From positions 82,858 to 146,857 of the forward strand of contig JBEKUB010000005.1 of the NCBI GenBank assembly GCA_049515455.1: a stretch of 64,000 bases of DNA. The letters are read 5' to 3'. A program made the translations under genes and the position numbers. The notes beneath the pieces were generated by a model. The model did not search any database and was not told the DNA's origin. It saw only the letters and a program-made list of their open reading frames with translations. This document shows, piece by piece, positions 1 through 27,636 of this stretch; positions within the stretch are counted from its first letter, which is position 1; each line of letters begins with the position of its first letter. This DNA is from Terracidiphilus sp. Lineage in GTDB: Bacteria > Acidobacteriota > Terriglobia > Terriglobales > Acidobacteriaceae.

Positions 1-136
1 GCTCGACCATTGTCACCGAAGTCTCACTCGATGGCAAGCAAAAGCTATCGCCTGATTCGTAATTTTTAAGGAAGCGCAGACCGGCATCAGGCACGCTGGA
101 TACCGTCTCGTTTGGCGAGAGCTCCGGCGAGTCCAA

Positions 137-1039
137 TCAGCTGTTCGCAGGAACGTTGAACGAAGCCCGCTTCCGCAACCACCTCGCACGTTCCCGCATC
201 TCGTGCTGAATCTCGTCACACTTTGCGTTCACGTATCCTGGACCTTCAAAGCAAACTCCTTGTGCATGACGCCCCATCGCTTCGACTGCAGCGACCATTG
301 TCTTTGCAGGTTGGCCCGAAACTTGAACAGGCAGAAACGGAATGGCATGGATGGCGGCGAAGATGCAGCCGTGAAAGCTGCTGGAGATCACGAATCGCGA
401 TGAGGCGATCATGCGGAACGACTCTTCCGCCGACCCGGATTTAGCAGTCTTCTTTCCGGAAAAGCGCGGATAAAAATCATTAGACAGCACGATACGCGAA
501 CATTTCAACTCGCGCGCCCAACGTCTAACCACGGAGTCCTCGGGCGGCTTGAGCCCGGAGCAAACCAGGAGCTGGTTCCTTCGCGCCGCCTGTGCTGGGG
601 CCGATAGAAAACTGCAATCCGCCGCGAGACGAGCTGAAATACCGTGCTGTGCAAGGTAGCCGAAGCTGGCGACGTCACGCACCGCAATGAAGTCGGCGTA
701 TTTGTACATCTCGATCAGCTCATCGCAATTCCAGCAGCCGTGGTTCACAATCCAGACACGAACGTTTCGCTCCCGCGCCATCTTGAGGGAATTAAGTAGA
801 GCAACGGCTGTAGGCGTTCCGGAATGAACGCTGCCCTCTCCATTGATGACCAGCATGCCGGCTTTTTCGATGCGCTTCCACACCGCTTCGACCGGCTTGA
901 GCCGTCCGAGCGGCAGACGATCGGCGATGGTAAGGCCAACGCGTGAGAGGAGCTGTTCCAGATTCGTTGTAGTCAGCCAGGAGCCCCAATGCTCTCCCCG
1001 CACAGATCCGCGCGTATCGTTTGCGAGCAGGAAATTCAT
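137..1039 (-). CDS. Polysaccharide pyruvyl transferase family protein
   Basis: 300-aa ORF with INGEGS, DFIAVRD and C-terminal VISSSFHGCIFA..AIPF motifs typical of the family; start overlaps the upstream stop (ATGA, 1036-1039). Confidence 0.75.
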   Translation of the reverse strand: MNFLLANDTRGSVRGEHWGSWLTTTNLEQLLSRVGLTIADRLPLGRLKPVEAVWKRIEKAGMLVINGEGSVHSGTPTAVALLNSLKMARERNVRVWIVNHGCWNCDELIEMYKYADFIAVRDVASFGYLAQHGISARLAADCSFLSAPAQAARRNQLLVCSGLKPPEDSVVRRWARELKCSRIVLSNDFYPRFSGKKTAKSGSAEESFRMIASSRFVISSSFHGCIFAAIHAIPFLPVQVSGQPAKTMVAAVEAMGRHAQGVCFEGPGYVNAKCDEIQHEMRERARWLRKRASFNVPANS

Positions 1040-1929
1040 AGCGTGGCGTACCTGGTATCCGGATGAAGATTGACCGGTGGAATGTCGAATTGCCCGGTCA
1101 GTCGAGCATAGTAAGAAAACCAGCTATTGTTATAGATCAGTGAGTTGCAGTGGGCGAGCAAATACATCTCCACCAAGGCATTCCGCGCGTTCTCCAGCCC
1201 CAGATCTCTCCGATGCAATCGCCCGCCGCCCGCCTCGTGAAACGCCTTGGGCCGGGTAAACAGGCTCGATAACAGCAGCTTCAATTGCTGCTCTGCCTCT
1301 TGAGAGTCCGTGGCAAGGAAGATGCGAAACCGGCCTCTGAGGGTGGGTTTCATCACTTTGTACATTTGTCTGCATGCCGCGGCGATTTGGATGCATGATT
1401 CGTGGAGACCCGCGTCCGGCCGGAACCCCAGATACTCTCCGTTGCCGTGACGAAAATGGACCCCGAGTACGGTTGCGTCGGCAAATTCTTTGTGCCTGAA
1501 CTCGTCAATCTCCTGTTGTACATCGTCGTGTAATTGCAATCTTGAGTAGAATCTCTTTTGCGCTTCGAGCTCAGGAAAGATATGCATCGGCCTTCTGCAC
1601 AGAAGCGTAGGTGCCGGCAGATCCGTGCCTGCGGTCAGCAATGCATCATATTCGCAGCCTTCCATTCGATGAAGGAAGACGACAGGCTTGGGAAATTTTA
1701 ACCTGCGCAATGAGTCGTCGCAAATGAGTTTAACGCCGTCGATTTCCTCAGGTTTCCGGAACAGGTAGGGAAAGGCATTCGCTTTCCGGTCGGCAAGGTA
1801 AAGAGAGCTTCGCCAGTCGACAACGAGGGTCCTCGAGGTCCGGTGGGCATAGTACCAGGCGCCAAGCATGGTCGCCATGTCTGATCCCAGACCGGTCTTC
1901 TTCTTCGAGATCAGGAATCGCTCGTCCAT
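1036..1929 (-). CDS. nodZ: NodZ-like alpha-1,6-fucosyltransferase (GT23-like)
   Basis: From ATG 1929 (GGAGG upstream): KKKTGLGSDM..AWYYAHRTSRTLVVDWRSS, GVHFRHGNGE, IFLATDS, ALVEMYLLAHC match NodZ fucosyltransferase motifs as I recall them. The ORF-track extension to 2259 is probably not translated. Confidence 0.8.
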   Translation of the reverse strand: MDERFLISKKKTGLGSDMATMLGAWYYAHRTSRTLVVDWRSSLYLADRKANAFPYLFRKPEEIDGVKLICDDSLRRLKFPKPVVFLHRMEGCEYDALLTAGTDLPAPTLLCRRPMHIFPELEAQKRFYSRLQLHDDVQQEIDEFRHKEFADATVLGVHFRHGNGEYLGFRPDAGLHESCIQIAAACRQMYKVMKPTLRGRFRIFLATDSQEAEQQLKLLLSSLFTRPKAFHEAGGGRLHRRDLGLENARNALVEMYLLAHCNSLIYNNSWFSYYARLTGQFDIPPVNLHPDTRYATL

Positions 1930-2200
1930 TTTTATTCTTCTCGTCCCTCCCAGCAGTGAACTCCTGGAAGGAGTCAACCTTGAAGTACAGGAGCCAAAAT
2001 ATAACACAACATGCAGCGATCGCAGTAACTGGTTCCCAGGAAAGTCTAGACGCTTGAACAGCACATTATTGGATGCACATCGAAGTGCTTTTCGAGTAAT
2101 ATGAGTACCTCCAGATTCCTCGTGCCCTTCGCACTGCCGGCGCGCGAGAACAATCTTACCGCCATTCCGCAACCAGAATGCAGAAAAGAGAGTTTTCCTC

Positions 2201-3361
2201 ATGGCGACAAATATCGGATCAGTATTGAAAAAACCGGCAAGAATCCCTATCACCAACATCTATATGGACGGCGATTACACCGGAGAAGTCATTGTGGGAT
2301 CGCAGGGAAAGATTGCAAACGTGAATCTCGATACCGGCAGCAGCACCCTGGCATTCGATGGCCAGTTCTACAATCCGAGCCAGGATACCAGCGCTCAATT
2401 GACCAACATCGCGCAGGAAGTCATATACGGCCGCGGAAGCTGGGTTGGCGCCGTAGTGAGCTCCGACGTCTGCATCGGTGGCACAACCGTGAAGGAGGTG
2501 AACTTTGCGGTCGCCTACGTTGAGTCGAAGGAAATGTTTGGCAAAGCAAACGGGATCATGGGTCTGGCCTACACTCGCCTTAACAGCGCTTTCACATTGC
2601 CCGGAAAAACATGGCCGCCTAAATACCATTACAACCAGATACAAAATGGCAGCGTCACGTTTGTGGATCCCTATTTCACGCAATTGGAGAAAAGCGGTAT
2701 CTTTGCAAACAAATTCGCCTTCTACACGAGGCGCTCAAAGATAAGCCATGCGAAGACAAACCCCTCTGCTGATCCTCTTAACCATGGATACCTGATTCTC
2801 GGCGGCGGGGAAGAGAGCACGGATCTGTACGATAGTTCGAAGCCATTTCAAATTGTGCGGGTTTTGGACGATGTTTGGTACAACACCAACTTGAAGGCGA
2901 TTGTCGTCGGCTCAAGTGACCCGATTACCGTGCCCCCGCCTACCAAGGGAAGCGGCAACCTGACGAACTCGATCATAGATAGCGGGACAAGCAGCATCAC
3001 TTTGAGTCAAGAACTTTTCGATGCTGTAATCGCCCGGTTATCAAGCGGAGACAACAAGCAGTTTGCTCATGCAATGCGCGCGGGTTATCTTCCCATGGGC
3101 AGCCTCAACCGGAAGTTGTGGCCTCAGTTGGATTTCATTCTTGAAGGAGTTGATGGCGATGTCAGGATTGAGGTGTCGCCCCAGAACTATTGGCAGGTGA
3201 ATTCGCCTGAACGCGGATATGCCACTGCACCACTTCGAGGAGACGGAGAACGGCTGAAAGGGCGATCCATCCTGGGACTCCCACTGATGAACGGCTATTT
3301 CACGATATTCGACCGTTCGGAAGACCGGACGGGCGTGGTCAAGTTCTCCCCCCGGCGTTAA
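2201..3361 (+). CDS. Pepsin-like aspartic protease (family A1), no signal peptide
   Basis: Two catalytic motifs (LDTGSS, IDSGTS), flap YGRGSW, GIMGLA and ILGLPLMNGYFTIFD: a complete bilobed pepsin fold. Confidence 0.9.
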   Translation: MATNIGSVLKKPARIPITNIYMDGDYTGEVIVGSQGKIANVNLDTGSSTLAFDGQFYNPSQDTSAQLTNIAQEVIYGRGSWVGAVVSSDVCIGGTTVKEVNFAVAYVESKEMFGKANGIMGLAYTRLNSAFTLPGKTWPPKYHYNQIQNGSVTFVDPYFTQLEKSGIFANKFAFYTRRSKISHAKTNPSADPLNHGYLILGGGEESTDLYDSSKPFQIVRVLDDVWYNTNLKAIVVGSSDPITVPPPTKGSGNLTNSIIDSGTSSITLSQELFDAVIARLSSGDNKQFAHAMRAGYLPMGSLNRKLWPQLDFILEGVDGDVRIEVSPQNYWQVNSPERGYATAPLRGDGERLKGRSILGLPLMNGYFTIFDRSEDRTGVVKFSPRR

Positions 3362-3612: not shown

Positions 3613-4121
3613 GGCGCCCCACTGCCAAAAACAATGGGCACAACCATAGCACGGAGGACAGATGGACGATTTCATTAGGATTTTTATGTATAAGCTGAGA
3701 CTCCCATTCTCTCCGCCACTGATTTATCCAACTCCACTAAGATCAGATATCTACAATAGAATCAACTGCCTTGCTGCTATTTGTCAGGATCTGTACTGTC
3801 TGTAAAGATCCCTGTTTTTCCCAAAAAATCCCTTAATTAGCCGCAGCATGGAGAAAAATCCGTCATTCCTCCCCAAACATTAAAAGAGGCCTTCCCAGAG
3901 AATCCTACATCGCTTGACAGACATCCAACAGCGGAGAGTAGGCCACAATCGAACAACGCAGAATAGGGCCACGAATGTAGGATTGCGGTCCCCTCTAATT
4001 CTTACTCGCGCGTGTACCCAACCGGCTTCACCGAGGAGGCAATCGTTCGCGGGTGGAGGATGAACGCGATTCCCAAAGCAGCGGCGACGTCATCGCGTCA
4101 GTGTTTTTCTGGAATCCGACT

Positions 4122-6794
4122 ATGCCACGATCCCCTTCGTCGTCCTATCGACTGCAACTCCATCGCACGTTCAACTTCGATGATGCCGCGAGAATCGCCC
4201 GATACCTCAAGGATCTGGGAATATCGCACGTCTACTGCTCGCCTTATTTGCGTGCGGCAGCAGGTAGTATGCATGGATACGATGTCATAGACCCTCGGGC
4301 AGTGAACCCCGAGTTGGGTGGCGAGGATGGCCTCTTGCGATTCAGCAGTGCGCTCGAAACCCTCGATCTGGGCCAGGTCCTCGACATTGTTCCCAACCAC
4401 ATGGCCGCAGGCCAGGAAAACACGTACTGGTGGGACGTGTTGGAAAACGGGCCATCAAGCCGATTCGCTGCGTGGTTCGATATAGATTGGAATTCTGCAG
4501 AAGTGAAGCTCCAGAACAAGGTGCTGATCCCTGTTCTGGGCGATCAGTATGGACGGGTCCTGAGCGCCAATCAGATCAAAATCAACTATGACGGTCAATC
4601 GTTTCAGTTGCGCTACTTCGACAACTCTTTTCCCTTGGCGCCCCGTTCGCTGGCAATTCCGTTGAGCGTGGCTGCCAAGCATGTGAACGCGCCGACGCTG
4701 GGCTTTATTGCCGATAGCCTGGCGCGGCTCCCTTCACCGGATTCATCAGAGGAGGAAGTGCTAACCGCGCGCCATCGCGACAAGACCATTCTCTACGAGC
4801 TTTTAGAACGTGTCACAAAAGAGCAACCGGGAGTAGTAGCGGCGATTACGCGCGCGATCGATGATCTGAATGCAAACATCGATGCGCTCGATTCCCTGCT
4901 CAATTTGCAAAACTATAGATTGGCGTATTGGCGTACAGCCGATCAGGAGCTTGGTTATCGCCGCTTCTTCGACGTCAATACTCTCATCGGTGTGCGAATC
5001 GAACGGCCGCAGGTTTTCGCAGCAACCCACTTTTGGATTATGGAGTGGTTGAGGAAAGGCGTTCTCGATGGAGTGCGGGTCGATCATCCAGACGGTTTGC
5101 GAGATCCCCAACTGTATTTTGAGCGGCTGCGCGCCGGCTCGCCCCAGGCCTGGATTGTCGCGGAGAAGATCCTGCGGCCCGAAGAATCATTACGTTCGGG
5201 CTGGCCTATCGACGGCACCACAGGATACGACTTCCTGAATGCATGTAATGGCCTTCTTGTTTATGGCGAAGGGCTGAATGAGTTGACGGAAGTTTATACA
5301 AACTTCATTCGGCAACCAGTTCAATTCGAATCGATGGTGCATACCAAGAAGCTGAACGTAGAACATGAGGCTTTAGGCAGCGATGTGAACCGGCTGGCGC
5401 AAATGTTCGTCGAGATCTGCGAGAATAATCGTGATCGCCGCGATTACACACGTGCCGAGATAAGGCGAGCCATCCGCGAGGTTGCTGCGAGTTTTTCCGT
5501 CTACAGAACCTATGTTGCGCCGGTGCGTGACGAGGTTACGGAGGAGGATATAAAACAAATCTCCAGTGCGGTAGCCTTCGCGAAAACACAAAGATCTGAT
5601 ATTTACCCTGATCTTTACGATTTCATTTGCGATGTGCTTACAATGCGCGCGCGCGGCAAGCTTGAAACAGAGTTTCTGCTTCGCTTTCAGCAGTTCACAT
5701 CTGCCGTAATGGCGAAGGGTCTTGAGGACGCAGCATTCTATTGCTACAACCGAATGATCGGACTCAACGAGGTGGGTGGCGCGCCAGAGCGTAGCGGAAT
5801 CACTCTCGATGAATTCCACTCATATTGCGCGCGAGCGCACGCCGATCATCCGCAAACGATGAACACTCTTACAACACACGACACCAAGAGATCAGAAGAT
5901 GTGCGTGCGCGATTGGCAGTGCTGACCGAAATGCCCGGAAACTGGCGTTCGGCCCTGCACCGCTGGTCGCGACGGAACCAGCAATTTAAAACCAAAACAT
6001 TCCCTGATCGCAATACTGAATACTTTCTCTACCAGACGCTGATCGGCGCGTGGCCAATTACGGTCGAACGCATTCAAGGCTACATGGAAAAGGCCGTCCG
6101 GGAAGCTAAGGAGCAAACGAGCTGGACACAACCGAATCAAGAGTTTGAGGATGCACTGAAACTCTTTATCGAACGGATCCTGGCATCAACTGATTTCGTT
6201 TCCGAGCTCGAATCATTTGTCGGGAAGGTCCTGCTTCCTGGGCGAGTCAACAGCCTGACGCAAACACTTCTTAAATGCACGGCGCCCGGAGTTCCAGACA
6301 CATACCAAGGCAGCGAATTATGGGATTTGCGACTCGTCGATCCAGACAATCGCGGGCCAGTTGATTATGAAACAAGAAGGGCAATGCTCGCGGAACTCGA
6401 TGCCGGCATCAGCGTCGACGAGATTATGAAGCGCATGGACAGCGGAATGCCAAAGCTATGGATTCTCTATAAAGCGCTGCATCTGCGGCGGGAAAACCCT
6501 GAGTGGCTCGGCAAGAATGCCGCATATATTCCGCTTCCAGTAGAAGGGCCTAAGTGGGCGCATTTGATCGCATTTTCTCGAGGCGATTCAGTCGCTGTGA
6601 TAGCTCCTCGCTGGAATGTCAAGCTCGGCAGCGGGTTTGGTTCCATGACTGTCGATCTGCCGCCGGGAGACTGGACCAACCTCTTCACCGGAGAAGCAAG
6701 AAGCGGTGGACGTGTGCGCGCACAACAATTGTTTGGAAAGTTTCCGGTAGCGCTCCTTGTACGTGACAGAGGTGCAGGCGATGTATCGGTTTAG
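4122..6794 (+). CDS. treY: Malto-oligosyltrehalose synthase
   Basis: SSYRLQ, HGYDV, DIVPNHM, YRRFFDV, RVDHPDGL, EKIL, THDTKRSEDVRAR, LVDPDNR. Alternative GTG start at 4053. Confidence 0.95.
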   Translation: MPRSPSSSYRLQLHRTFNFDDAARIARYLKDLGISHVYCSPYLRAAAGSMHGYDVIDPRAVNPELGGEDGLLRFSSALETLDLGQVLDIVPNHMAAGQENTYWWDVLENGPSSRFAAWFDIDWNSAEVKLQNKVLIPVLGDQYGRVLSANQIKINYDGQSFQLRYFDNSFPLAPRSLAIPLSVAAKHVNAPTLGFIADSLARLPSPDSSEEEVLTARHRDKTILYELLERVTKEQPGVVAAITRAIDDLNANIDALDSLLNLQNYRLAYWRTADQELGYRRFFDVNTLIGVRIERPQVFAATHFWIMEWLRKGVLDGVRVDHPDGLRDPQLYFERLRAGSPQAWIVAEKILRPEESLRSGWPIDGTTGYDFLNACNGLLVYGEGLNELTEVYTNFIRQPVQFESMVHTKKLNVEHEALGSDVNRLAQMFVEICENNRDRRDYTRAEIRRAIREVAASFSVYRTYVAPVRDEVTEEDIKQISSAVAFAKTQRSDIYPDLYDFICDVLTMRARGKLETEFLLRFQQFTSAVMAKGLEDAAFYCYNRMIGLNEVGGAPERSGITLDEFHSYCARAHADHPQTMNTLTTHDTKRSEDVRARLAVLTEMPGNWRSALHRWSRRNQQFKTKTFPDRNTEYFLYQTLIGAWPITVERIQGYMEKAVREAKEQTSWTQPNQEFEDALKLFIERILASTDFVSELESFVGKVLLPGRVNSLTQTLLKCTAPGVPDTYQGSELWDLRLVDPDNRGPVDYETRRAMLAELDAGISVDEIMKRMDSGMPKLWILYKALHLRRENPEWLGKNAAYIPLPVEGPKWAHLIAFSRGDSVAVIAPRWNVKLGSGFGSMTVDLPPGDWTNLFTGEARSGGRVRAQQLFGKFPVALLVRDRGAGDVSV

Positions 6795-8535
6795 AGTTTG
6801 GGCGCCGCTTGCGCGGAACGTCTCGGTCAAGTCCGGCGGCGTCGCATACGCGACGCAAGGCCCTGATGACCGCGGCTGGTGGGAGCAGCAGGTTGAAGAG
6901 GCAGGACCTGGAACGGACTACGGCTACCTTCTCGATGACGATCCGAAGCCCTATCCCGATCCGCGCTCTGAGTGGCAACCTAACGGTGTGCACGGGCTAT
7001 CGCGTATCTACGATCAATCAGCTTTTGAATGGAGCGATGCGCGTTTTCAGGCGCCTCCGCTGCCAAGCGCGATCATCTATGAATTGCATATCGGAACTTT
7101 CACGCCGGAGGGCACGTTCGATGCTGCGGCTGGCAAGCTCGCATACCTGGCCGAGCTTGGCGTGACGCACGTCGAACTGATGCCTGTGAATGCTTTTGAA
7201 GGGCAACACGGCTGGGGCTATGACGGTGTAGCGCTCTTCTCCGTTCATAAACCATACGGAGGTCCGGACGGTCTTAAGCGATTTGTGAATGCGGCGCATC
7301 AGGCGAGGCTCGCCGTGCTGCTCGATGTGGTGTACAACCACTTTGGGCCGAGCGGAAACTACACCGGTAAATTCGGACCGTATACTGTCCCGTCGCATCG
7401 GACGCCCTGGGGCGGCGCAGTGAATCTTGAGGATGCAGGGTCCACTGAGGTTCGTCGGTTTTTTTGCGACAACGCGATGATGTGGCTTCGCGACTTCCAC
7501 GTCGATGGACTGCGCATCGATGCGGTACATGCGTTCGTCGATCGCTCCGCCATTCACTTTCTGGAGCAGCTGGCCGTTGAAGTAGATGCATTGGAGGCAA
7601 TCCTCGCGCGCCGGCTTGTTCTCATCGCCGAAAGCGATCTAAACGATCCTCGCGTAGTGACGCCGCATGAAGCGGGAGGATTCGGTATCGATGCACAGTG
7701 GAACGATGACTTTCATCATGCGCTTTCCACCGTACTGAACGCGAACGAGAGGCAAGGCTATTACGCGGACTTCGGCACATTTGAGCAGCTGGCAAAATCG
7801 CTTGAGCGGACTTTCGTGTATGACGGCATCTACTCCCGTTATCGACAACGCATCCATGGCCGCCCAACCTACGCGCTCCCGCAGCACCGCTTTCTCGGTT
7901 ACATTCAAACGCACGACCAGATAGGCAATCGCGCAGTGGGTGACCGGATCGGTCATATTGCAGGCCTGGAGCGCGTGAAAATCGCGGCCGCGCTGTACCT
8001 GCTCAGCCCATTTATTCCAATGCTTTTTCAGGGAGAAGAGTGGGCAGCATCAACTCCGTTTCTCTACTTCGCCGACCACGATGATCCGGAATTAGCGCAG
8101 GCAGTATCCGAGGGGAGAAAGAAAGAGTTTGTCGCGTTCGGATGGGATCCCGCTTCCATTCCCGATCCTGAAAGTCCGGGGACCTTTGAAGCTTCAAAAC
8201 TGAAATGGGAGGAACTCGAGGTCGGCCACCATGCCCAAATGCTGTCGTGGTATCAGGCATTGATTCACATGCGCCGGTCCACGCCATGTCTCAATGATGG
8301 AAGCATCGGCAATGTGCATGTAACATTCGATGAACAAAAAAAGTGGCTGCGAATGAGACGCGGAACCATAACGGTAATCTGCAATCTCGGCGAGCTGGAA
8401 CAGATCTTCGACGTTCTCCAGGAAAGCCGCGTCGTCCTCGCATCACGGAGCGCAATCCAAGTTAGTCGGGGCAAGCTGAGCATGCCGCCTGATTCCATTG
8501 CTGTCGTGAGCGAATTCCCTTCTAAAAATGCCTGA
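6781..8535 (+). CDS. treZ: Malto-oligosyltrehalose trehalohydrolase
   Basis: FRVWAP, PDPRS, YELHIGTF, WGYDGV, DVVYNH, RIDAVH, IAESDLND, HDQIGNR; overlaps the treY stop. Confidence 0.95.
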   Translation: MYRFRVWAPLARNVSVKSGGVAYATQGPDDRGWWEQQVEEAGPGTDYGYLLDDDPKPYPDPRSEWQPNGVHGLSRIYDQSAFEWSDARFQAPPLPSAIIYELHIGTFTPEGTFDAAAGKLAYLAELGVTHVELMPVNAFEGQHGWGYDGVALFSVHKPYGGPDGLKRFVNAAHQARLAVLLDVVYNHFGPSGNYTGKFGPYTVPSHRTPWGGAVNLEDAGSTEVRRFFCDNAMMWLRDFHVDGLRIDAVHAFVDRSAIHFLEQLAVEVDALEAILARRLVLIAESDLNDPRVVTPHEAGGFGIDAQWNDDFHHALSTVLNANERQGYYADFGTFEQLAKSLERTFVYDGIYSRYRQRIHGRPTYALPQHRFLGYIQTHDQIGNRAVGDRIGHIAGLERVKIAAALYLLSPFIPMLFQGEEWAASTPFLYFADHDDPELAQAVSEGRKKEFVAFGWDPASIPDPESPGTFEASKLKWEELEVGHHAQMLSWYQALIHMRRSTPCLNDGSIGNVHVTFDEQKKWLRMRRGTITVICNLGELEQIFDVLQESRVVLASRSAIQVSRGKLSMPPDSIAVVSEFPSKNA

Positions 8536-9328
8536 TTGATTGGCTCGCAGTTGTAGCTTCGTCCGGCATGTGCGTCCGCTCACCGGTGTGCTCGACGTGA
8601 CTCTCCAGAGAGCGGCTGACGAGATCGCGCAAGCCGAGGCCAACCGCGAGAGCAAGTGTAAGAACAATACCGCCGAACAAGATTCCAAACGCGAGTTCGA
8701 CGATATTCCCGCCTACCTGCAAATGGTCGAGGACCATGGCCCCTGTCAGAACAAGAACAAGCCACTTCACGCCCAGGGACAGAATTCTCGCGTATTGCAA
8801 CTGTGCGTTCACGGCGCTGATCAGGACCGAGCGGGCAAGAAATCTGGCGATCACAATACCCGCAATCAGCAGAAGGGCGGCACCAACGGCATGAGTCAGA
8901 TAGGGCAACAACGAAATGGGCAGAGCTACGCCGGTTGCGTACGACGTATCGAAGGCCGAAACACCAATGACGAGACCAAGCAACACGCAGATCCAGAATG
9001 AGGCGCGGGCCGCGATCTCGCTCGGTGAGCTGGCCGGCGCCCAATCTGTACCGCTCTTGCGGGCGACGCGAAGGTCGAATTTTGCCCATGTAAGACACCG
9101 GCGCAATATCCAGGAAATCAGCATGCCAGCCAAAGCGAAGACCAGGAGCGAAAGAAAGAACGCAAGAATCCCGGGTAGCACGGCAATAAGCAGAGTGAGC
9201 ACGCGGTAAAGCGACTGGTGCAAAGCATCAGACATGTGATGCCAGATCGACACGTCTTCGCTGTACAGCGGTGATGCGGTGATGTTTCGAGTTGCCTGTT
9301 GAATCGTGTTATCGACCAGGTTTTGCAT
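8522..9328 (-). CDS. Multi-pass membrane protein, MscS TM-helix-repeat/CmpX-like
   Basis: AAGGAGG RBS; several hydrophobic helices; AFGILFGGIVLTLALAVGLG motif; no soluble MscS beta-domain. Confidence 0.6.
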   Translation of the reverse strand: MQNLVDNTIQQATRNITASPLYSEDVSIWHHMSDALHQSLYRVLTLLIAVLPGILAFFLSLLVFALAGMLISWILRRCLTWAKFDLRVARKSGTDWAPASSPSEIAARASFWICVLLGLVIGVSAFDTSYATGVALPISLLPYLTHAVGAALLLIAGIVIARFLARSVLISAVNAQLQYARILSLGVKWLVLVLTGAMVLDHLQVGGNIVELAFGILFGGIVLTLALAVGLGLRDLVSRSLESHVEHTGERTHMPDEATTASQSIRHF

Positions 9329-9386
9329 CGGATTCCCTCCTTATTGGCGCACCAGATTGACGCCCAGCCCTTGGCGTGAAGAATGA

Positions 9387-10577
9387 TTACGAATTGAACC
9401 GGTCTGGCCAACGCCACCGCGCGACCAGGTATGGCTTGTCCGCTTCGAACGAGGCGGCAACAGCTTCAATGTGTCGCTCTGCTGGAATTCCGGATGCCGT
9501 CACGTTGATATGACCTGCGACCCAGGCCAGATAAAGTGGGATCAGTGCTCCTAAGAGGTGCCCGCGGTTGATCGTGCGCAGGCGGTAAGCGATGAGAAAG
9601 TCATAAACAATGCGTGCCCAAAGGCCGTCCGGCATGCGGAAGGCGGCGGGATCAAGCGTCGAGCAACGTTTAAGTCCAAGCAAGGAATTGGGCGGCAAGA
9701 CAAGCGACCAGATCTCCTGCAGGTTCGCGTTGGCTAGTTGAAATGCCGCAACCATGCGCGCAACATTCGCGGTTCCGTCGCTCAGTTCAGCCTCAACAAT
9801 CGGCCGGCGTATCGGCGGCGCCCTGCGAGGCCGCTGCCAAAGAGCCGCTTTCGCTTCGAGATCCGCAAAAAGCGATCCAGTTATCAAGGAAAGAATTGAA
9901 TTGATGTCGGGATCAGAGGGTTGGGGCATTGCACGCGATCCCACATCAACTTCATCCGCCGCGAAGCCGGCCGCAATAGCTTCGTTCACCGGCCACACAA
10001 GAACTTCACCTTGGTTGACAGCAGAAACTCGTTCAGCAGCCAAGCTAAGTTGCTCTGCCATTCTCAGCGACATGCCAAGATCAATTGACAACGGAAAGCG
10101 GACACGCGAAGCAAAGATCGCTCGTGTCAGAGGGTAAAGAATGGCTGAGTTGATCAGGCCGGCATTCGATGGCAGAGAATAATGTGGAACAGCCAGGTCA
10201 ATGGACGCTTTTGAAACAGCATCGTTCAGGCCGCGCAGCGCGAGCGGGCTAAGCGAATCGGCTTCTGGCCCGAGAATCAGAATTACCTGCGCTCCATGCT
10301 TGCGACCGAACTGCGCTGCATTCACAAAGTCGACCGGTTTAATCGACCATGCCGCATTTGACTGCGGCGTTGCGACGATTCGAAGGCTCGAGGGAACATC
10401 GGCAGGCAATTCATTCTGCGTCGCCACAATAAAGTTTTCGGGAGAGAATGCGGATGCGAGGTTCGCCAGAACTCCATTGAAATGCTCGGGAGCCATGGCC
10501 GTCACCAGCACGAGAAGCTCGGCCACCGTGTTGTCTGTAGCCAGCGTGTTATCGGGAATTGGATTCGCCGTTGCCAT
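9387..10577 (-). CDS. GT2-like protein related to glucosylglycerate synthase-type glycosyltransferases, catalytic motifs degenerate
   Basis: ILYPLTRAIF, WARIVYDF, LIPLYLAWV and FEADKPYLVARW resemble that family, but there is no DxD (GPEADSL at the expected site). Confidence 0.55.
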   Translation of the reverse strand: MATANPIPDNTLATDNTVAELLVLVTAMAPEHFNGVLANLASAFSPENFIVATQNELPADVPSSLRIVATPQSNAAWSIKPVDFVNAAQFGRKHGAQVILILGPEADSLSPLALRGLNDAVSKASIDLAVPHYSLPSNAGLINSAILYPLTRAIFASRVRFPLSIDLGMSLRMAEQLSLAAERVSAVNQGEVLVWPVNEAIAAGFAADEVDVGSRAMPQPSDPDINSILSLITGSLFADLEAKAALWQRPRRAPPIRRPIVEAELSDGTANVARMVAAFQLANANLQEIWSLVLPPNSLLGLKRCSTLDPAAFRMPDGLWARIVYDFLIAYRLRTINRGHLLGALIPLYLAWVAGHINVTASGIPAERHIEAVAASFEADKPYLVARWRWPDRFNS

Positions 10578-10643
10578 TATTCTCCGGAGGAAGCCGCAAG
10601 GAATTAAGTTCCCTCACTAGTAAAATTACTTTGTTGCAAAACC

Positions 10644-13600
10644 CTATAAAGCCAGAACGCCATCGAGCGGAATGCAGACCCAGGAGGGTCGGTTATTCAA
10701 CTCGTACAGCAACTCATACAAAGCCTTTTCAAGCAGGTAGGCGTCGAGCAGAATTTGGGCTTCTCTTGGCGGCGGCAACAGATCCGGATTCGCCGCGATG
10801 CCCTCGCGGTATGAAGAAAGGAAATAAGAGGTCGCCGAATCTTGCCAAAGCTGCGCCCACCCCATGAGCGTGGCGCGATCGATCAGGTGTTTCCCGCCTC
10901 CCTCGCCTGCAATACAAAGATCAACCGCGGCAAATGCGGCGTAAGCAAAGGATCGCATCATGCCGACAACGTCTTTCAACGGTGACTGTTTTCTTCGTCG
11001 TTCTTCAATTGACCGTGCAGGCTCACCTTCGAAGTCGATGATAACGAAATCTCCCTTTTGATTCTTCTCGGCAATAGAGCCGCCGCTGGTGCCAGCGATT
11101 CGCAATGTCTGCCCTAAATGATAGTCGCCGTGAATTCGGATCCGCTGCCCGGCAGCTGCAACTGTCTGAATCGTACGTGCCAGCTGAATGAGTTCGGGCC
11201 GACGGGATATAAGCAAGCCCGCACGATCAGAGGTCGCATCATCCAGCTCGGGGAGCTTGAATTTAAGCGCTTCGACGGTGGACTTTATTTGTAGCTCGAT
11301 GCGTTCTGCGTCGTGGGCAAGCTCGTCACTTGTAAGTGGCTCGGGAACGAACGCTGCGAGCGTCGAACTGCTCGAAAGTGCGAGGTGGAGTTCGGCAGTG
11401 CGCCTACCCAAGAGTGCTGCCGCCTCGAGCGTCGATCGAATCGGTTCCAGAGGTTCCAAGATCGGCTCGCGCTCGCTCAGCCAGCTGGGAGCAGTTGATC
11501 GTGGAGGGGCCACGTGCTCCCCAGCGGCGGAAAGCCAGCCGGCAAGTTCGTCAAGGTACCACTGCCATCCATTGCCCTGGTTGGCAACCATCCCCTGGAG
11601 CAGAGCGACCGTCGTTTTTGCCGCACTGTCTGAACTGATGGAGATTTCGCCGAGAAAAGGCGGAATTCTGTTGAAGTGAGCAACCTCCGTCAAAAAACGG
11701 CCAACTTCAACATCAGGATTTTCCCCCGGTTGCAGTCGGCGATAAATCTTGAGAAATAGTCGCTTGCCGAAGAGAATGGACGTGTTTGATTGCTCGGCAG
11801 AGCCGACGTGAGAAGGTAACCGCTGAGCGGCCAGGACGGATGGAAATGCGCCGGAAGGACGCGCATGAAGCCGGCCGCCCTCATAAAACGAGTCCCCTGC
11901 AGAAGGAGACTCGCGCGGCTCGAATCTTGACGCTCCAGCTGACTGGTTTGACGGGATGTCAGTTCGTGGCGGCATTGCTGTGTCGCCGGGCTGAGCGCTG
12001 AGTGGAGCTGGCGTGACCGCAGCGCCGACCGAGACCGCTTGCGCTTCATCGCCGATCGACGACGGCTGATTGAAGCCGCTCTCCGCCGCTTTCGTTGACT
12101 CTGTGCTTTCAAAAACAGGCAGGGTCGCGTCGCTCGCAATCAAGCTCAGGAGTTCATGCTGAAAATCCTCGCTGACAGTCGCGTCATGCAGAATTGCGGG
12201 CCCAGCACTCGTAGTCAGTTTGGCAACGATGCTATCGGGCTGACCTTCGACGATTTCCTCAAGAAGAGCGCCCGTCGTCACTGCGAGCGGGATCTGATAG
12301 ACATCCGGCGAACCATCGAAATACGTCACCTCAAAGAAGAACAGTGCACTTGGAACGGCCACCGGCTCTGATACGTTGTTCGTTGAAAGACCTTCAGGCT
12401 TCGCATCGGGCGCAAGTTCCACCCAGTTGCGGACACGCACGGACTCGATTTTGTGCGTCTTGGCGCCAAACCATCGCTTGCGCGGCAACCAGTCAAGGAG
12501 CGCCTGCTCACAAATTGCGGCGCCGCCGCCAGCGATGAATTGCGTCCATCCATTCGCAAAGACCGGTTGAACAGTCTCGGCTTCCTCTTGCACAGACTCT
12601 TGTGTGACCACTTCAACATCGGGCGGCATCTCCTCGACCTCACTGGCAGCCTGCAGTTCAAGCCAGATAAAGGAATACGGAGCCAGTGTGAGCGAGTATG
12701 GTTCGGGCGTGACGGCGGGAAACCGAACGTAGCCTAGCATCTCGACCGGTTCGTAGCCTGCATAGCTTGCGAGATCGAGCGAAACCGGCTGGGCAAATCG
12801 GCTGAGGTTGGCGACGCAGAGCACCGTTTCACAGAATCCGTCCCCATGGTCCAGTTCGCGAAGGTAAGCAAGAATCTTGCGATTCGATGGATTTAGAAAC
12901 GCGAGTGTTCCGCGGCCAAATACCTGAAAGAGCTTTCGCAGCGCAATCATGTTACGCGTCCAGTGCAGAAGGCTCGATTGATCGTCGAGCTGTGCTTCCA
13001 CATTCACAACCTGGTAGCCATAAATGGGGTCCATGACTACCGGCAAATAGAGCCGCGCCGGATCGCATTTGGAAAAGCCCGCATTCCGATCCGACGTCCA
13101 TTGCATCGGCGTCCGAACGCCATTGCGATCGCCGAGATAGATGTTGTCGCCCATCCCGATCTCATCGCCGTAATACAAAATTGGCGTGCCGGGGAAACTG
13201 AACAAAAGTGACTTCAATAGTTCAATACGGCGGCGATTATTGTCGACCAGCGGAGCCAGCCTGCGCCGTATGCCAACATTGATGCGCATCCGCGGGTCGG
13301 CCGAATAGGCGAAATACATATAGTCGCGCTCATCATCGGTGACCATCTCGAGCGTCAGTTCGTCGTGATTCCGCAGAAAGAGCCCCCACTGGCAGTTTTC
13401 GGGAATTGGCGGCGTCTGTGCCATGATGTCGGTGATCGGGAGCCGGTCTTCCTGGCGAAGTGCCATGTAGATGCGCGGCATGAGCGGAAAATGAAACGCC
13501 ATGTGACACTCGTCGCCGTCGCCAAAATACGGACGCACGTCCGCAGGCCACTGATTGGCTTCCGCAAGAATTAGACGATTTGCATACTCCGCATCAATCG

Positions 13601-14309
13601 CTGCGCGCAGAGTTTTTACTACTGCATGAGTCTCGGGCAGGTTTTCGCATGAAGTTCCATCCCGCTCGCAAAGATATGGAATCGCATCCATGCGAAGCCC
13701 ATCGACCCCCATATCAAGCCAAAATCGCATTGCCTTCAGCACTTCTTCCATCACCAGCGGGCTGTCGTAGTTGAGGTCCGGCTGGTGCGAAAAAAAACGA
13801 TGCCAATAGTAGGCCTTCGCCGCTTCGTCCCAGGTCCAGTTTGATTTTTCTGTGTCAGTGAAGATGATGCGCGCATCCTCATACCGTTCTTCATTGTCCG
13901 ACCAGACGTACATATCTCGTTCCGCCGAACCCGCAGGAGACTGGCGCGCTGCCTTGAACCATGGATGTTGATCGCTGGTGTGATTCACGACCAATTCGAT
14001 CATCACCTGCAGGCCGCGGTGATGAGCAGCGTCAAGAAACGCCTTGAAATCGCTCAGTGTTCCATACGACGGGTTGACGTCGATGTAATTGGAGATGTCG
14101 TACCCATCGTCGCGCATTGGCGACGGGAAAAATGGCAAGAGCCAGATGCAGGTGATTCCAAGATCCTTCAAATAATCAAGATGCGACATCAGGCCCGGAA
14201 AATCACCGATACCGTCGTTATTCGAATCCGCAAACGCGCGAACGTGCAGTTCATAGATGATCGCGTCTTTATACCAGAGGGGATCTGTTGTGCTTGCGAT
14301 CTTCTTCAC
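10644..14309 (-). CDS. treS: Trehalose synthase (maltose alpha-D-glucosyltransferase) fused to maltokinase
   Basis: WYKDAIIYE, DDGYDIS, HRFFSHQPDLN, RMDAIPY, FLRNHDELTLE; C-terminal Mak domain EQSNTS, RIHGDYHLGQ, IIDFEGEP, KALYEL.YE. Confidence 0.95.
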   Translation of the reverse strand: MKKIASTTDPLWYKDAIIYELHVRAFADSNNDGIGDFPGLMSHLDYLKDLGITCIWLLPFFPSPMRDDGYDISNYIDVNPSYGTLSDFKAFLDAAHHRGLQVMIELVVNHTSDQHPWFKAARQSPAGSAERDMYVWSDNEERYEDARIIFTDTEKSNWTWDEAAKAYYWHRFFSHQPDLNYDSPLVMEEVLKAMRFWLDMGVDGLRMDAIPYLCERDGTSCENLPETHAVVKTLRAAIDAEYANRLILAEANQWPADVRPYFGDGDECHMAFHFPLMPRIYMALRQEDRLPITDIMAQTPPIPENCQWGLFLRNHDELTLEMVTDDERDYMYFAYSADPRMRINVGIRRRLAPLVDNNRRRIELLKSLLFSFPGTPILYYGDEIGMGDNIYLGDRNGVRTPMQWTSDRNAGFSKCDPARLYLPVVMDPIYGYQVVNVEAQLDDQSSLLHWTRNMIALRKLFQVFGRGTLAFLNPSNRKILAYLRELDHGDGFCETVLCVANLSRFAQPVSLDLASYAGYEPVEMLGYVRFPAVTPEPYSLTLAPYSFIWLELQAASEVEEMPPDVEVVTQESVQEEAETVQPVFANGWTQFIAGGGAAICEQALLDWLPRKRWFGAKTHKIESVRVRNWVELAPDAKPEGLSTNNVSEPVAVPSALFFFEVTYFDGSPDVYQIPLAVTTGALLEEIVEGQPDSIVAKLTTSAGPAILHDATVSEDFQHELLSLIASDATLPVFESTESTKAAESGFNQPSSIGDEAQAVSVGAAVTPAPLSAQPGDTAMPPRTDIPSNQSAGASRFEPRESPSAGDSFYEGGRLHARPSGAFPSVLAAQRLPSHVGSAEQSNTSILFGKRLFLKIYRRLQPGENPDVEVGRFLTEVAHFNRIPPFLGEISISSDSAAKTTVALLQGMVANQGNGWQWYLDELAGWLSAAGEHVAPPRSTAPSWLSEREPILEPLEPIRSTLEAAALLGRRTAELHLALSSSSTLAAFVPEPLTSDELAHDAERIELQIKSTVEALKFKLPELDDATSDRAGLLISRRPELIQLARTIQTVAAAGQRIRIHGDYHLGQTLRIAGTSGGSIAEKNQKGDFVIIDFEGEPARSIEERRRKQSPLKDVVGMMRSFAYAAFAAVDLCIAGEGGGKHLIDRATLMGWAQLWQDSATSYFLSSYREGIAANPDLLPPPREAQILLDAYLLEKALYELLYELNNRPSWVCIPLDGVLAL

Positions 14310-14345
14310 GCTTTCACTCTCCCAAAAACCTCGGCCCTTGCTGCA

Positions 14346-16457
14346 TCATTGGATTCGGTTCACGCGAAAAATGTGTGCCGGTTGAACCCCCGGCCGCAGC
14401 GCCACATAATTGCGGACACGCCACGTGTACTGCACCCCGTTCAGCAGGTCGTCGACAAGAAAGCTCTCATCTGCGGAACAGCCGATCGCGTCCAGATCAA
14501 GATTCGTCCAGCCGGTCTGTTCGTTGAATGAATCGAGATTCACCACAACCAGAATCGTGTTATCGAATCCAGGCGTCGCTTTCGAATAGCAAATCAACTG
14601 CGGGTTGTCGATCGAGTGAAAATGCAGCGATGCGTTCGATTGAAGCGCGCGATTCGCATGACGAATACGATTGAGCTGCGTAATGAGTGGCACGAGTGAA
14701 TCCGGCGCGTTGCGGTCGCGCTGCCGGATCTCGTATTTCTCGCTGCTGAGATACTCCTCTGACTCAATTTTGCCGGTAGGCGGCGCGGCCGGAGCATTTT
14801 CTGCAAGTTCGTACGCCGGACCATAGATGCCGTAGCTCGAACTCAGGGTCGCGGCAAGAATCAAACGATACATGAACGCCGGACGCCCGCCTTCCTGAAG
14901 AGTTTTGTGCAGTATGTCAGGCGTATTCGGCCAGAAATTCGGCTGAAAGAATTCGCTCACCGGCGGACGAGTCAGCTCTTCGAGATAGCTTTGCAACTCG
15001 ATCTTCGAGTTACGCCACGTAAAGTACGTGTACGATTGCGTGAAGCCCCGCTTGGCCAGGGCGTACATTACGTGCGGCCGCGTAAATGCTTCGGCAAGGA
15101 AAATAGTGTCAGGATAACTCGCTCGCAAGGCACCGAGGCACCACTCCCAGAAAGGCAGCGCTTTTGTGTGCGGATTGTCGACGCGAAACACGCGCACGCC
15201 CCGGTGAATCCAGAATTCGAACACTGAATACAGCTCGTCCCAGAGGGCGCGCCAGTCAGGCGATTCAAGATTCAGCGGATAAATATCCTGGTATTTCTTG
15301 GGAGGATTCTCCGCATATTGAATCGATCCGTCAGGCCGGATAACAAACCAATCTGGATGTTCTGTGACCCATGGATGATCGGGCGAACACTGAAATGCAA
15401 TGTCCAGAGCAATTTCAACACCCTGCGACTTGGCCGCGGCAACCATGTTTTCAAAATCTGCGAACGTGCCGAGTTGCGGGTGAATCGATTTGTGGCCGCC
15501 CAAATCTCCAGCAGCCTGCGCACCCAGCGCCGAGCTCGCGATGGCCGCCCTGTCGCCGATCGCCCACGGACTCCCAGGCGCATTTGGCGGAGCATAGGTC
15601 GCGTTGTTTGGTCCTTTGCGGAACGAGCGTCCTATGGGATGAATCGGCGGCAGATAAACAATGTCAAACCCCATCGCCGAGATCTCGGGCAGTTGCATTT
15701 CGACATCGCGGAATGTCCCGTGCTGGCCCGGAATCGGCGACGCAGACCGAGGAAAGAGCTCGTACCACGATGAAAATCCTGCGCGTTCCCGATTCACCCA
15801 AACCGGCAACTCGGTCTCGTATCGCGTAGCGTTTGTCAGATCGGGATAATTCCTCATCAATTGAAGAAGTTCTTCATCGCATGGGTTGTCATAGTTCGAT
15901 CGATTCTCGACCGCAAGGTTTTCGAAGCTCTGTGCTATTTCGTGCAACCGCTTCGCGTCATTCGATCGCGCCCGCCGCGCGCCTTCGTGGATGAGCGCCG
16001 CTCCCGAGCGAAGCGCAAGCGCAACATCCTGCGCGCTGAAATCAAATCTAACGTTCAGCTTCGCATCCCTACCTGACACTTTACCCGGTGCCGTGCCCGT
16101 AATTTCAGGCTCCTTTTGTGCGGCGATCCGTTTCGCCAATTCGCCGGCCCATGTGGCGAAGTGATCCACCCAACCGAGAAGAGTGAAGCGCCAGTCACCG
16201 AGCTTGTCAACAACGAACGTGCCATTCCAGACATCATTGCCCATTGCGCGCATCGGCAGAAACGACCACCGGCGGTCGTTCGAATGACGATAAAGTAACC
16301 GCGCAGCCAGGTCATCCTTGCCGTCGGCAAAGACTGCTGCCGTAACGACAACTTCATCACCCGCAACCCGGCAGACAGGATGACGGCCCGCATCAATCTG
16401 AGGATTGACGTCCTCGATGACAACGCGTCTGCGACCATTAGAGGGTTTCAATGGCAT
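14346..16457 (-). CDS. glgE: Alpha-1,4-glucan:maltose-1-phosphate maltosyltransferase
   Basis: WYELFPRS, YLPPIHPIG, GSPWAIG, YAENPPKKYQDIYP, FRVDNPHTK, AEAFT, NFWPNTPDIL; ATG 16457 preferred over 16535. Confidence 0.95.
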   Translation of the reverse strand: MPLKPSNGRRRVVIEDVNPQIDAGRHPVCRVAGDEVVVTAAVFADGKDDLAARLLYRHSNDRRWSFLPMRAMGNDVWNGTFVVDKLGDWRFTLLGWVDHFATWAGELAKRIAAQKEPEITGTAPGKVSGRDAKLNVRFDFSAQDVALALRSGAALIHEGARRARSNDAKRLHEIAQSFENLAVENRSNYDNPCDEELLQLMRNYPDLTNATRYETELPVWVNRERAGFSSWYELFPRSASPIPGQHGTFRDVEMQLPEISAMGFDIVYLPPIHPIGRSFRKGPNNATYAPPNAPGSPWAIGDRAAIASSALGAQAAGDLGGHKSIHPQLGTFADFENMVAAAKSQGVEIALDIAFQCSPDHPWVTEHPDWFVIRPDGSIQYAENPPKKYQDIYPLNLESPDWRALWDELYSVFEFWIHRGVRVFRVDNPHTKALPFWEWCLGALRASYPDTIFLAEAFTRPHVMYALAKRGFTQSYTYFTWRNSKIELQSYLEELTRPPVSEFFQPNFWPNTPDILHKTLQEGGRPAFMYRLILAATLSSSYGIYGPAYELAENAPAAPPTGKIESEEYLSSEKYEIRQRDRNAPDSLVPLITQLNRIRHANRALQSNASLHFHSIDNPQLICYSKATPGFDNTILVVVNLDSFNEQTGWTNLDLDAIGCSADESFLVDDLLNGVQYTWRVRNYVALRPGVQPAHIFRVNRIQ

Positions 16458-16903
16458 GCGGGTCCTCAATAGAGAGCACCGCTGCCACGGGATCGGTCGA
16501 AGGAAAGCCGAAGTTGGCCGCACACCGAACGCCAAGCCGAGGGGATCGCCAATTGAGCAGCAGCAACCTTAAAGATGCTCCAGAAGGGAAGCAGGATGCT
16601 CGGCCCCCAAACCGAACACTCTTAAGCACCTCACCTTTTGGGGATTTCGCGCAAAACAAATCGTTGTTATCCCGGTTGGGATGAACACGCGCAACTCAGA
16701 TTTAGGTCGTCTTCTTGCTGAATGCTGACCGTCTCTATCGTGTTATATCGGGCAAGGAGCCTCGGAATTCACGGAATCCTATTCCAACCTTGCCATCGTG
16801 CTTTCTGCAACTTACAGGATTGAAAAGGGAGAAGAAAGAACGAATCAAACCCTACTTGGCATGAAGCGAAATATGCTTTTCGCCACTCCTGGGTTGCGTC
16901 AAA

Positions 16904-25281: not shown

Positions 25282-25421
25282 GCGCGTCCCAGAAGCACTG
25301 CCGCAATGATCCTCGACTGATGGAATTCGCCCACACAACTTTGTAACCTATGCTGGGTTCCAACCATTGGGAAGCCCGCGCCGTACTCGCACCCCGGCCA
25401 CCTTCCGTAGGAGCGCTATTC

Positions 25422-27608: not shown

Positions 27609-27636
27609 CGAACCGCGACAGGTCATTGAGGTAAAC

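Follow-up and report, generated by a model that had tools for sequence, protein, structure and literature searches.

The closest described relatives of the system reported here lie in several separate pathways. The characterized enzymes of glycosyltransferase (GT) family GT23, rhizobial NodZ and FUT8, have chitooligosaccharides or N-glycan cores as their acceptors, in which they fucosylate O-6 of the aglycone-proximal GlcNAc: the reducing end of the chitooligosaccharide for NodZ and the Asn-linked GlcNAc for FUT8. In the polysaccharide pyruvyl transferase family (PF04230), Pvg1p of Schizosaccharomyces pombe pyruvylates galactose on N-glycans, and bacterial members include enzymes of the CsaB, WcaK, and PssM type. 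The serine-rich repeat loci of Gram-positive cocci (GspB/Fap1) join a low-complexity repeat protein to dedicated soluble cytoplasmic GTs (GtfA/GtfB). In eukaryotes, mucin-type O-glycosylation (GT27) uses polypeptide N-acetylgalactosaminyltransferases (ppGalNAc-Ts) on Pro/Thr/Ser-rich tandem repeats, and the hydroxyproline-rich glycoprotein and Skp1 pathways use oxygenases of the prolyl 4-hydroxylase (P4H) family, Skp1 being modified in the cytoplasm by a hydroxylase together with several GTs, one of them a fucosyltransferase. Here, we describe a NodZ-like gene and an adjoining PF04230 gene (PvT) at the left end of a 64-kb stretch of a Terracidiphilus contig (JBEKUB010000005.1; "the window" refers to all 64,000 nucleotides). 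A preliminary description of this DNA had taken the pair for a two-enzyme decoration module, but it is not self-contained: the two genes are cistrons 1 and 2 of an eight-gene operon, the rest of which lies to the left of the window.

Sequence comparison places the NodZ-like protein in the NodZ/GT23 family. The Pfam NodZ profile (PF05830) matches the whole protein with 167.5 bits (E = 4.4e-49; gathering cutoff, 28.3), and NodZ of Bradyrhizobium sp. WM9 (PDB 2HHC; also 3SIW and 3SIX) aligns with it over almost its full length (residues 3-278; E = 6e-46 by phmmer against PDB). The mechanical open reading frame (ORF) reaches position 2259; we chose the ATG at 1929, as homologs and gene calls begin MDERF. 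The three α-1,6-fucosyltransferase motifs noticed at the outset are intact, RHGNGE included, and each aligns with its counterpart in 2HHC (Table 1). In an alignment of ten members of the NodZ-like clade, H158, R160, H161, G162, N163, G164, and E165 of motif I, D208 and S209 of motif II, and E254 and M255 of motif III are invariant. Motif I has the NodZ form rather than that of FUT8. The residues of FUT8 equivalent to the motif I His/Arg, His363 and Arg365, have a role in that enzyme (bioRxiv 10.1101/2020.02.14.949818). By analogy with NodZ, the donor is presumably GDP-fucose and the reaction inverting.

The resemblance to NodZ does not appear to extend to orthology with the Nod-factor enzyme. 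Identity to rhizobial NodZ is 32-36% (E = 1e-37 to 1e-51), and the best matches outside the clade are unnamed environmental proteins, ranking above rhizobial NodZ (220 bits for P0107, whose contig is only 1 kb). In a neighbor-joining tree, which is rough and carries no support values, the window clade groups with such unnamed environmental proteins, apart from the rhizobial clade. An exhaustive HMMER search gave 545 family members, 18 of them at E ≤ 1e-30. The NodZ-like clade itself is small, with 10 clusters at ≥51% identity in 5.8 billion proteins. A scan of 185,579 GTDB species representatives returned one close genome, an Acidobacteriaceae metagenome-assembled genome (MAG), the other 79 loci being rhizobial, and a metagenome-wide scan for NodZ-clade loci returned two. 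Unlike rhizobial NodZ, the window gene has no nod/sym cluster and no chitooligosaccharide synthase partner. Across the whole 64-kb window, Pfam searches with the ORFs of ≥200 aa that we judged to be genes gave no NodA/B/C, chitin-synthase-type, gmd/fcl, or Wzx/Wzy/Wza match. Likewise, the flanks on the matching metagenome contig L001 hold no nod genes, no Wzx/Wzy/ABC exporter, no priming transferase, and no chain-length/export or sugar-nucleotide genes. The lack of nod genes noted previously is therefore borne out, and an O-antigen locus, named in the preliminary description as a finding that would speak against its reading, is not present: this is not an O-antigen or EPS (exopolysaccharide) biosynthesis locus.

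PvT matches PF04230 with 73.6 bits (E = 3.2e-20; gathering cutoff, 25.3), so both families named in the preliminary description stand. PvT scores far lower on the CsaB equivalog model of NCBIfam, which it fails (TIGR03609; 38.5 bits against a cutoff of 213.1), and has no meaningful match among PDB sequences. Its AlphaFold2 model (pLDDT 91.2) adopts a GT-B-like fold, with a match to Pvg1p (5AX7; E = 5e-6, TM score 0.57). Because UDP-GlcNAc 2-epimerases score as well or better (E = 1.6e-7), we read this match as a generic GT-B-like fold. The PvT clade is tight and confined to Acidobacteriaceae (about 20 clusters at ≥57% identity), which sets it apart from the CsaB/WcaK/PssM-type enzymes. The proposed translational coupling to the NodZ-like gene is upheld by the ATGA overlap at the junction, and an identical junction occurs in three related loci (L008, L011, and L091).

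The sequence to the left of the window, whose inspection had been suggested, was reached through metagenome contigs that encode an identical NodZ-like protein (L001-L006, from an exact-protein look-up, and L092, added by the metagenome scan). These reveal the rest of the operon, which spans about 9.5 kb on one strand in the order NodZ-like gene, PvT, 2-oxoglutarate (2OG) oxygenase, short-chain dehydrogenase/reductase (SDR), repeat protein, JmjC protein, GT2-type GT, and O-FucT-type GT (Table 1). ATGA overlaps are found at the NodZ/PvT, 2OG/SDR, and JmjC/GT2 junctions, and the remaining gaps measure 16-226 nt. The host is Terracidiphilus (Acidobacteriaceae), as NCBI names a 100%-identical GT2 protein "MAG: Terracidiphilus sp."; the contigs come from peat and wetland samples, including acidic wetland soil.

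Table 1. Positions of the operon genes, sequence motifs, and adjoining features. Positions are those of the window unless L001 is given (window position 1 corresponds to L001 11929).
Feature	Position	Strand	Remarks
Intergenic stretch, PvT to next cistron	1..136	-	Next gene (2OG oxygenase) begins 56 nt outside the left window edge
Polysaccharide pyruvyl transferase family gene (PvT)	137..1039	-	Cistron 2; 300 aa
ATGA overlap, NodZ-like stop/PvT start	1036..1039	-	Read from sequence; translational coupling
NodZ-family (GT23) GDP-fucose-dependent fucosyltransferase-like gene	1036..1929	-	Cistron 1; 297 aa
Motif III, VEMYLLA (aa 253-259)	1153..1173	-	Aligns with IDMYLLA of NodZ 2HHC
Motif II, FLATDS (aa 204-209)	1303..1320	-	Aligns with FLCTDS of NodZ 2HHC
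Motif I, GVHFRHGNGE (aa 156-165)	1435..1464	-	Aligns with GVHVRHGNGE of NodZ 2HHC; GDP-binding His/Arg motif of α-1,6-fucosyltransferases
Divergent intergenic region, NodZ-like gene/pepsin-like gene	1930..2200		271 bp; from gene layout, presumed operon promoter region
Pepsin-like (A1) aspartic protease gene	2201..3361	+	386 aa; PF00026, 78.9 bits; DTGS at aa 44, DSGT at aa 260; no signal peptide
P4H-like 2OG-Fe(II) oxygenase gene	starts L001 11985		Cistron 3; 272 aa; Pfam PF13640/PF13661
Classical SDR gene			Cistron 4; 246 aa
Repeat-protein gene	L001 13767-14945		Cistron 5; 392 aa
Cupin_8/JmjC protein gene			Cistron 6; 338 aa
GT2-type glycosyltransferase gene	L001 16115-17968		Cistron 7; 617 aa
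POFUT-like GT gene with CBM6-like domain			Cistron 8; 513 aa; weak O-FucT (PF10250), POFUT2, and CBM6 matches

The partners of the pair resemble enzymes that modify proteins. Human JMJD5, a protein arginyl hydroxylase, is the nearest match of the JmjC protein (E = 8e-39), and matches to FIH, JMJD7, TYW5, and JMJD6 were obtained as well. For the large GT2-type enzyme (hereafter, the large GT), the best 14 PDB sequence matches found by phmmer are all ppGalNAc-Ts (best E = 6.5e-6). Its AlphaFold model, built with 37 homologs (pLDDT 89.6), gives the same picture: the top 50 Foldseek matches in PDB are all ppGalNAc-Ts (best E = 4.6e-17), and the fold match spans about 315 columns in the C-terminal half. 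None of the operon proteins has a transmembrane segment or signal peptide by hydropathy. As a separate observation, the N-terminal ~300 aa of the large GT occur in other environmental proteins fused to NodH-like sulfotransferase, S-adenosylmethionine methyltransferase, or GT1 modules, which would suit a shared module for substrate docking or for a second catalytic activity.

Cistron 5 encodes a low-complexity protein (28% Pro, 24% Gly, 15% Thr, and 14% Ser in L001) whose layout on the operon strand is MPQSPPPYPPLTPNPPNPPYPP-(G)n-(YPP)7-Cys/Pro patch-(PGTGPGT)n-(TPTPTSKP)13-(GS)n-(PGSGSG)n-basic tail, with the N-terminus MPQSPPPYPP. The same strand and domain order recur in L008, L011, L009, L093, L094, L096 (two copies), and L097, with repeat units that have diverged between lineages (STGPGP, PGYPT, PGPTPGP, TPTPTTKP). 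The start is conserved (ATG; GTG in L011) and preceded 6-9 nt upstream by a GGAGG-like Shine-Dalgarno sequence. The gene is present in 8/8 GT2-family loci with readable DNA, alongside a 605-618-aa GT and down to 46% identity. Judged from these sequence features, the coding sequence looks real. Some gene callers chose a 333-aa ORF on the minus strand instead; we rejected it because the operon-strand frame keeps its start, Shine-Dalgarno sequence, and domain order despite the diverged repeats. Among contigs with an identical NodZ-like protein (including L001-L005 and L092), the length ranges from 360 to 403 aa, which reflects either tandem copy-number polymorphism or assembly noise/collapse. We propose that the protein is intrinsically disordered and is the substrate of the operon enzymes.

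Gene content across the related loci separates a conserved core from more variable parts. The coupled pair, whose conservation had been put forward as a check, is kept within a subclade of ≥61% NodZ identity—L001 (100%), L008 (89%), L011 (61%), and L091 (61%)—which accounts for 4/6 NodZ contexts. Outside this subclade the pairing breaks down: in L007 (57%), the NodZ-like gene stands alone, about 8 kb from the O-FucT/GT2 genes, with a PvT homolog elsewhere on the contig, while in L009 (53%), it lies beside sedolisin, GT2, JmjC, and repeat genes with no PvT. Conversely, PvT occurs without a NodZ-like gene in L093, which has the whole cluster, and in L099, while L094, L096, and L097 contain only the 2OG-SDR pair, the repeat protein, and the GT, plus large proteins. 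Still, in every context long enough to judge (six lineages), the NodZ-like gene lies within about 1-9 kb of JmjC/GT2/O-FucT genes. On the basis of this gene content, the conserved core is the repeat protein, the ppGalNAc-T-like GT, and the 2OG-SDR pair, and the JmjC, O-FucT, aspartic protease, PvT, and NodZ-like genes are progressively more accessory, in that order.

Some relatives extend the cluster. A fusion of DUF6817 with an AspH-type hydroxylase (PF05118, 173 bits) and a GT of the KRE2/MNT1-like α-mannosyltransferase family GT15 lie within it in several lineages; in L011, the GT15 gene and the fusion gene are at 9029-9907 (-) and 11841-13622 (-), with equivalents in L008, L091, and L093, and the window organism has neither. 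In L094 (2192-9470), L096 (7166-9424), and L097 (8306-11482), proteins of 752-1383 aa with no Pfam match are encoded between the repeat-protein/2OG-SDR genes and the GT, in clusters that lack JmjC, O-FucT, and NodZ-like genes. In L007, genes for a CHAT protease and DUF7362, DUF7363, and DUF7379 proteins (11140-15006) separate the NodZ-like gene from O-FucT/GT2, and genes of toxin-antitoxin type (RHH_1, PIN7, Zeta_toxin) are found on its upstream side; the whole has the appearance of an inserted island.

Metatranscriptome assemblies from wetland include contigs, 100% identical to the window, that cover parts of PvT (55-445 and 644-947), the junction (1029-1199), and the NodZ-like gene (1467-1678); a contig at 55-260 crosses the PvT stop, and another (2159-2366) covers the start of the divergent protease gene. 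These contigs are consistent with transcription and with read-through across the NodZ/PvT junction and past the PvT stop. A scan of window positions 1-2300 found no convincing sigma-70 match in the divergent intergenic region and, downstream of PvT, nothing resembling a terminator on the coding (-) strand, with promoter and terminator counts no higher than in shuffled sequence.

Altogether, we are fairly confident that the NodZ/PvT pair functions as part of this operon rather than in the synthesis of Nod factors or O-antigen. The preliminary description had proposed an EPS, a glycolipid, or a GlcNAc oligomer as the acceptor. Protein-type hydroxylases, a ppGalNAc-T-like GT, and a Pro/Thr/Ser/Gly repeat protein consistently accompany the pair, which leads us to favor a protein-linked glycan instead. 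More specifically, the NodZ-like enzyme and PvT may tailor an O-glycan on the cluster-encoded repeat protein within a cytoplasmic hydroxylation/O-glycosylation system, a reading to which we give roughly even chances and in which we infer the acceptor, linkage, order of steps, and role. In such a system, hydroxylation of repeat-protein residues would be the task of two enzymes, the P4H-like 2OG oxygenase and the JMJD5-like JmjC protein, and the two-domain large GT, through its ppGalNAc-T-like C-terminal half, would start O-glycans on Thr/Ser or on the hydroxylated residues. Extension of the glycan, or addition of a second type, could then fall to the POFUT-like GT together with the large GT's N-terminal domain. 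The NodZ-like enzyme would next fucosylate a HexNAc of the glycan with GDP-L-fucose, possibly in α-1,6 linkage to the aglycone-proximal HexNAc by analogy with NodZ and FUT8; a ppGalNAc-T-like initiator could supply a protein-proximal HexNAc equivalent to the acceptor GlcNAc of those enzymes. Finally, PvT would add a pyruvate ketal derived from phosphoenolpyruvate, giving a negatively charged glycan.

Several results weigh against this reading. The likeness of the large GT to ppGalNAc-Ts is at the level of the fold, with weak sequence similarity. The DxH metal motif is a criterion for GT27. Unlike GT27 enzymes, the large GT has DSN/DAN in its place (FTDSN in L001, FCDAN in L009), and instead of a ricin-type lectin domain it carries the ~300-aa N-terminal domain, which has no Pfam assignment. 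The O-FucT score of the cistron 8 product (28.6) is below the Pfam gathering threshold of 31.5, a PDB sequence search gave no meaningful match for the P4H-like protein, a signal peptide is missing from the repeat protein, and the window shows no genes for GDP-fucose synthesis. The RNA contigs are of low depth and may stem from DNA carry-over. In addition, the NodZ-like gene and PvT are accessory, with L094, L096, and L097 having neither, and the PvT of L099 is in an unrelated context; because of this, the acceptor could be something else made by the cell.

One such possibility is that fucose and pyruvate decorate an EPS, a lipopolysaccharide, or a glycolipid assembled elsewhere, so that adjacency in the operon would have no bearing on the acceptor. 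The annotation of PF04230 fits this, as its members are mostly assigned to polysaccharide pathways (and the family is named accordingly), as do the 64%-identical PvT homolog of L099, which lies outside the cluster beside a GH125 glycosidase, the dispensability of the pair for the core cluster, and the lack of local GDP-fucose genes. However, neither the window nor its flanks contain the flippase, polymerase, exporter, priming transferase, or sugar-nucleotide genes of such a pathway. The pair is also co-oriented with the next genes, no terminator-like sequence follows PvT on their strand, RNA contigs run across the PvT stop, and the NodZ-like gene keeps company with JmjC/GT2/O-FucT genes in six out of six lineages examined. 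We therefore consider polysaccharide or glycolipid decoration unlikely. A Nod-factor-like role, in which the reducing-end GlcNAc of chitin oligomers or lipo-chitooligosaccharides would be fucosylated as a host-interaction signal, draws on the ~35% identity to rhizobial NodZ and on the full conservation of RHGNGE, but the absence of nodA/B/C and chitin synthase genes from the window and flanks, the position of the clade in the rough tree, and a peat/wetland habitat with no indication of a host all speak against it. For a Terracidiphilus MAG from such a habitat, the host-interaction signal suggested in the preliminary description is highly improbable, and we do not retain it.

The acid protease next to the cluster raises a different possibility, namely that the repeat protein is the precursor of a product similar to ribosomally synthesized and post-translationally modified peptides, which would be hydroxylated, glycosylated with fucose and pyruvate, and cut by the neighboring protease to release glycopeptides. 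The pepsin-like A1 protease, with intact DTG/DSG, accompanies the cluster in five lineages (L001, L008, L011, L091, and L093; 69-100% identity), and in L009 a sedolisin occupies its position. The large GT and the 2OG oxygenase also have weak NCBIfam matches to mycofactocin MftF (68.7 bits) and to the peptide-maturation oxygenase YhhC, respectively, but these scores are far below the cutoffs. Moreover, the supposed precursor is very long and length-polymorphic, shows no recognizable leader/core organization, and has no exporter in its cluster. Released glycopeptides, in place of an intact glycoprotein, thus strike us as quite unlikely.

Compared with the known systems, the operon combines familiar parts in a different way. 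Rhizobial NodZ belongs to the same Pfam family, but the window gene is grouped in one operon with genes for protein hydroxylases, further GTs, and a repeat protein. FUT8, of the same GT family, modifies a protein-linked glycan at the GlcNAc nearest the protein, an acceptor of the type we propose; in contrast to FUT8, the NodZ-like protein has no SH3 domain or coiled coil and looks cytoplasmic, whereas the acceptor of FUT8 is an N-glycan in the Golgi lumen. Pvg1p, which shares PF04230 with PvT and matches its model at the level of a generic GT-B-like fold, provides a precedent for the pyruvylation of glycoprotein glycans. The nearest bacterial analogs are the serine-rich repeat adhesins, repeat proteins with a glycosylation machinery of their own in the cytoplasm; the accessory tailoring GTs of those loci vary between strains much as NodZ and PvT vary in this cluster. 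Unlike those loci, the operon loci contain no GtfA/GtfB-type GT-B initiator, SecA2/SecY2, signal peptide, or LPXTG motif, and the operon adds 2OG/JmjC hydroxylases, an SDR, and a pyruvyltransferase in an acidobacterial host. With mucin-type O-glycosylation, it shares a (here proposed) Pro/Thr/Ser-rich tandem-repeat substrate and a ppGalNAc-T-like GT, and with the hydroxyproline-rich glycoprotein and Skp1 pathways a P4H-family oxygenase and, as for Skp1, a cytoplasmic hydroxylase alongside several GTs; it differs from both in having no GT60, GT74, or GT77 and in adding a JMJD5-like hydroxylase, an SDR, a POFUT-like GT with a CBM6-like domain, and a pyruvyltransferase.

From these likenesses, we tentatively raise the possibility, itself doubtful, that this Acidobacteriaceae system is a bacterial counterpart of mucin-type plus hydroxyproline-type glycosylation: a densely modified mucin/extensin-like protein, with P4H-/JMJD5-like (in some members AspH-like) hydroxylases, a ppGalNAc-T-like initiator, a POFUT-like GT, GT23 core fucosylation, and a pyruvate cap. 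The gene families are known, and non-rhizobial NodZ homologs exist; this set of enzymes with this type of substrate was not found in the literature searched, where nothing relevant came up either on a comparable acidobacterial system or on a GT27-type system in bacteria. If the reading is correct, GT23 would gain a class of acceptors through an enzyme encoded among bacterial protein-modification genes, and types associated with eukaryotes (ppGalNAc-T-like, POFUT-like, P4H-/JMJD5-/AspH-like, GT15, and pepsin-like) would be combined around a length-polymorphic mucin/extensin-like protein. The origin of mucin-type and hydroxy-amino-acid glycosylation would then become testable, as would the use of the polymer by abundant peat Acidobacteria, for example, in water retention, acid/metal tolerance, or aggregation. 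There is also a caution for annotation transfer, as one genome survey counted an Acidobacteriota "NodZ" match as a nodulation/plant-interaction trait, which is unwarranted at the window locus.

The genes around the operon differ in character on the two sides, with trehalose/GlgE genes on one and Cys-rich lipoproteins on the other. To our knowledge, A1 proteases such as the divergent pepsin-like one are uncommon in bacteria. Beyond it, the window contains a trehalose/alpha-glucan set (4053-16535) that comprises TreY-like (4053-6794) and TreZ-like (6757-8535) genes, a TreS-maltokinase fusion (TreS-Pep2; 10644-14309, -), and GlgE (14346-16535, -). We considered a link between the operon and this TreY/TreZ/TreS-Pep2/GlgE set and rejected it, since the 89%-identical relative L008 has other genes upstream of the aspartic protease. 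Two further proteases of acid-active type are encoded in the window, an S10 serine carboxypeptidase (28891-30453, -) and a sedolisin with a Pro-kumamolisin activation domain plus S8/S53 (41413-43215, +), along with a DUF1800/DUF1501 gene pair (25350-28881, +). At the other end of the operon, L001 19615-20894 (-) holds genes for two paralogous Cys-rich predicted lipoproteins, which are convergent to the operon end, lack Pfam matches, and are about 85% identical in their C-terminal parts.

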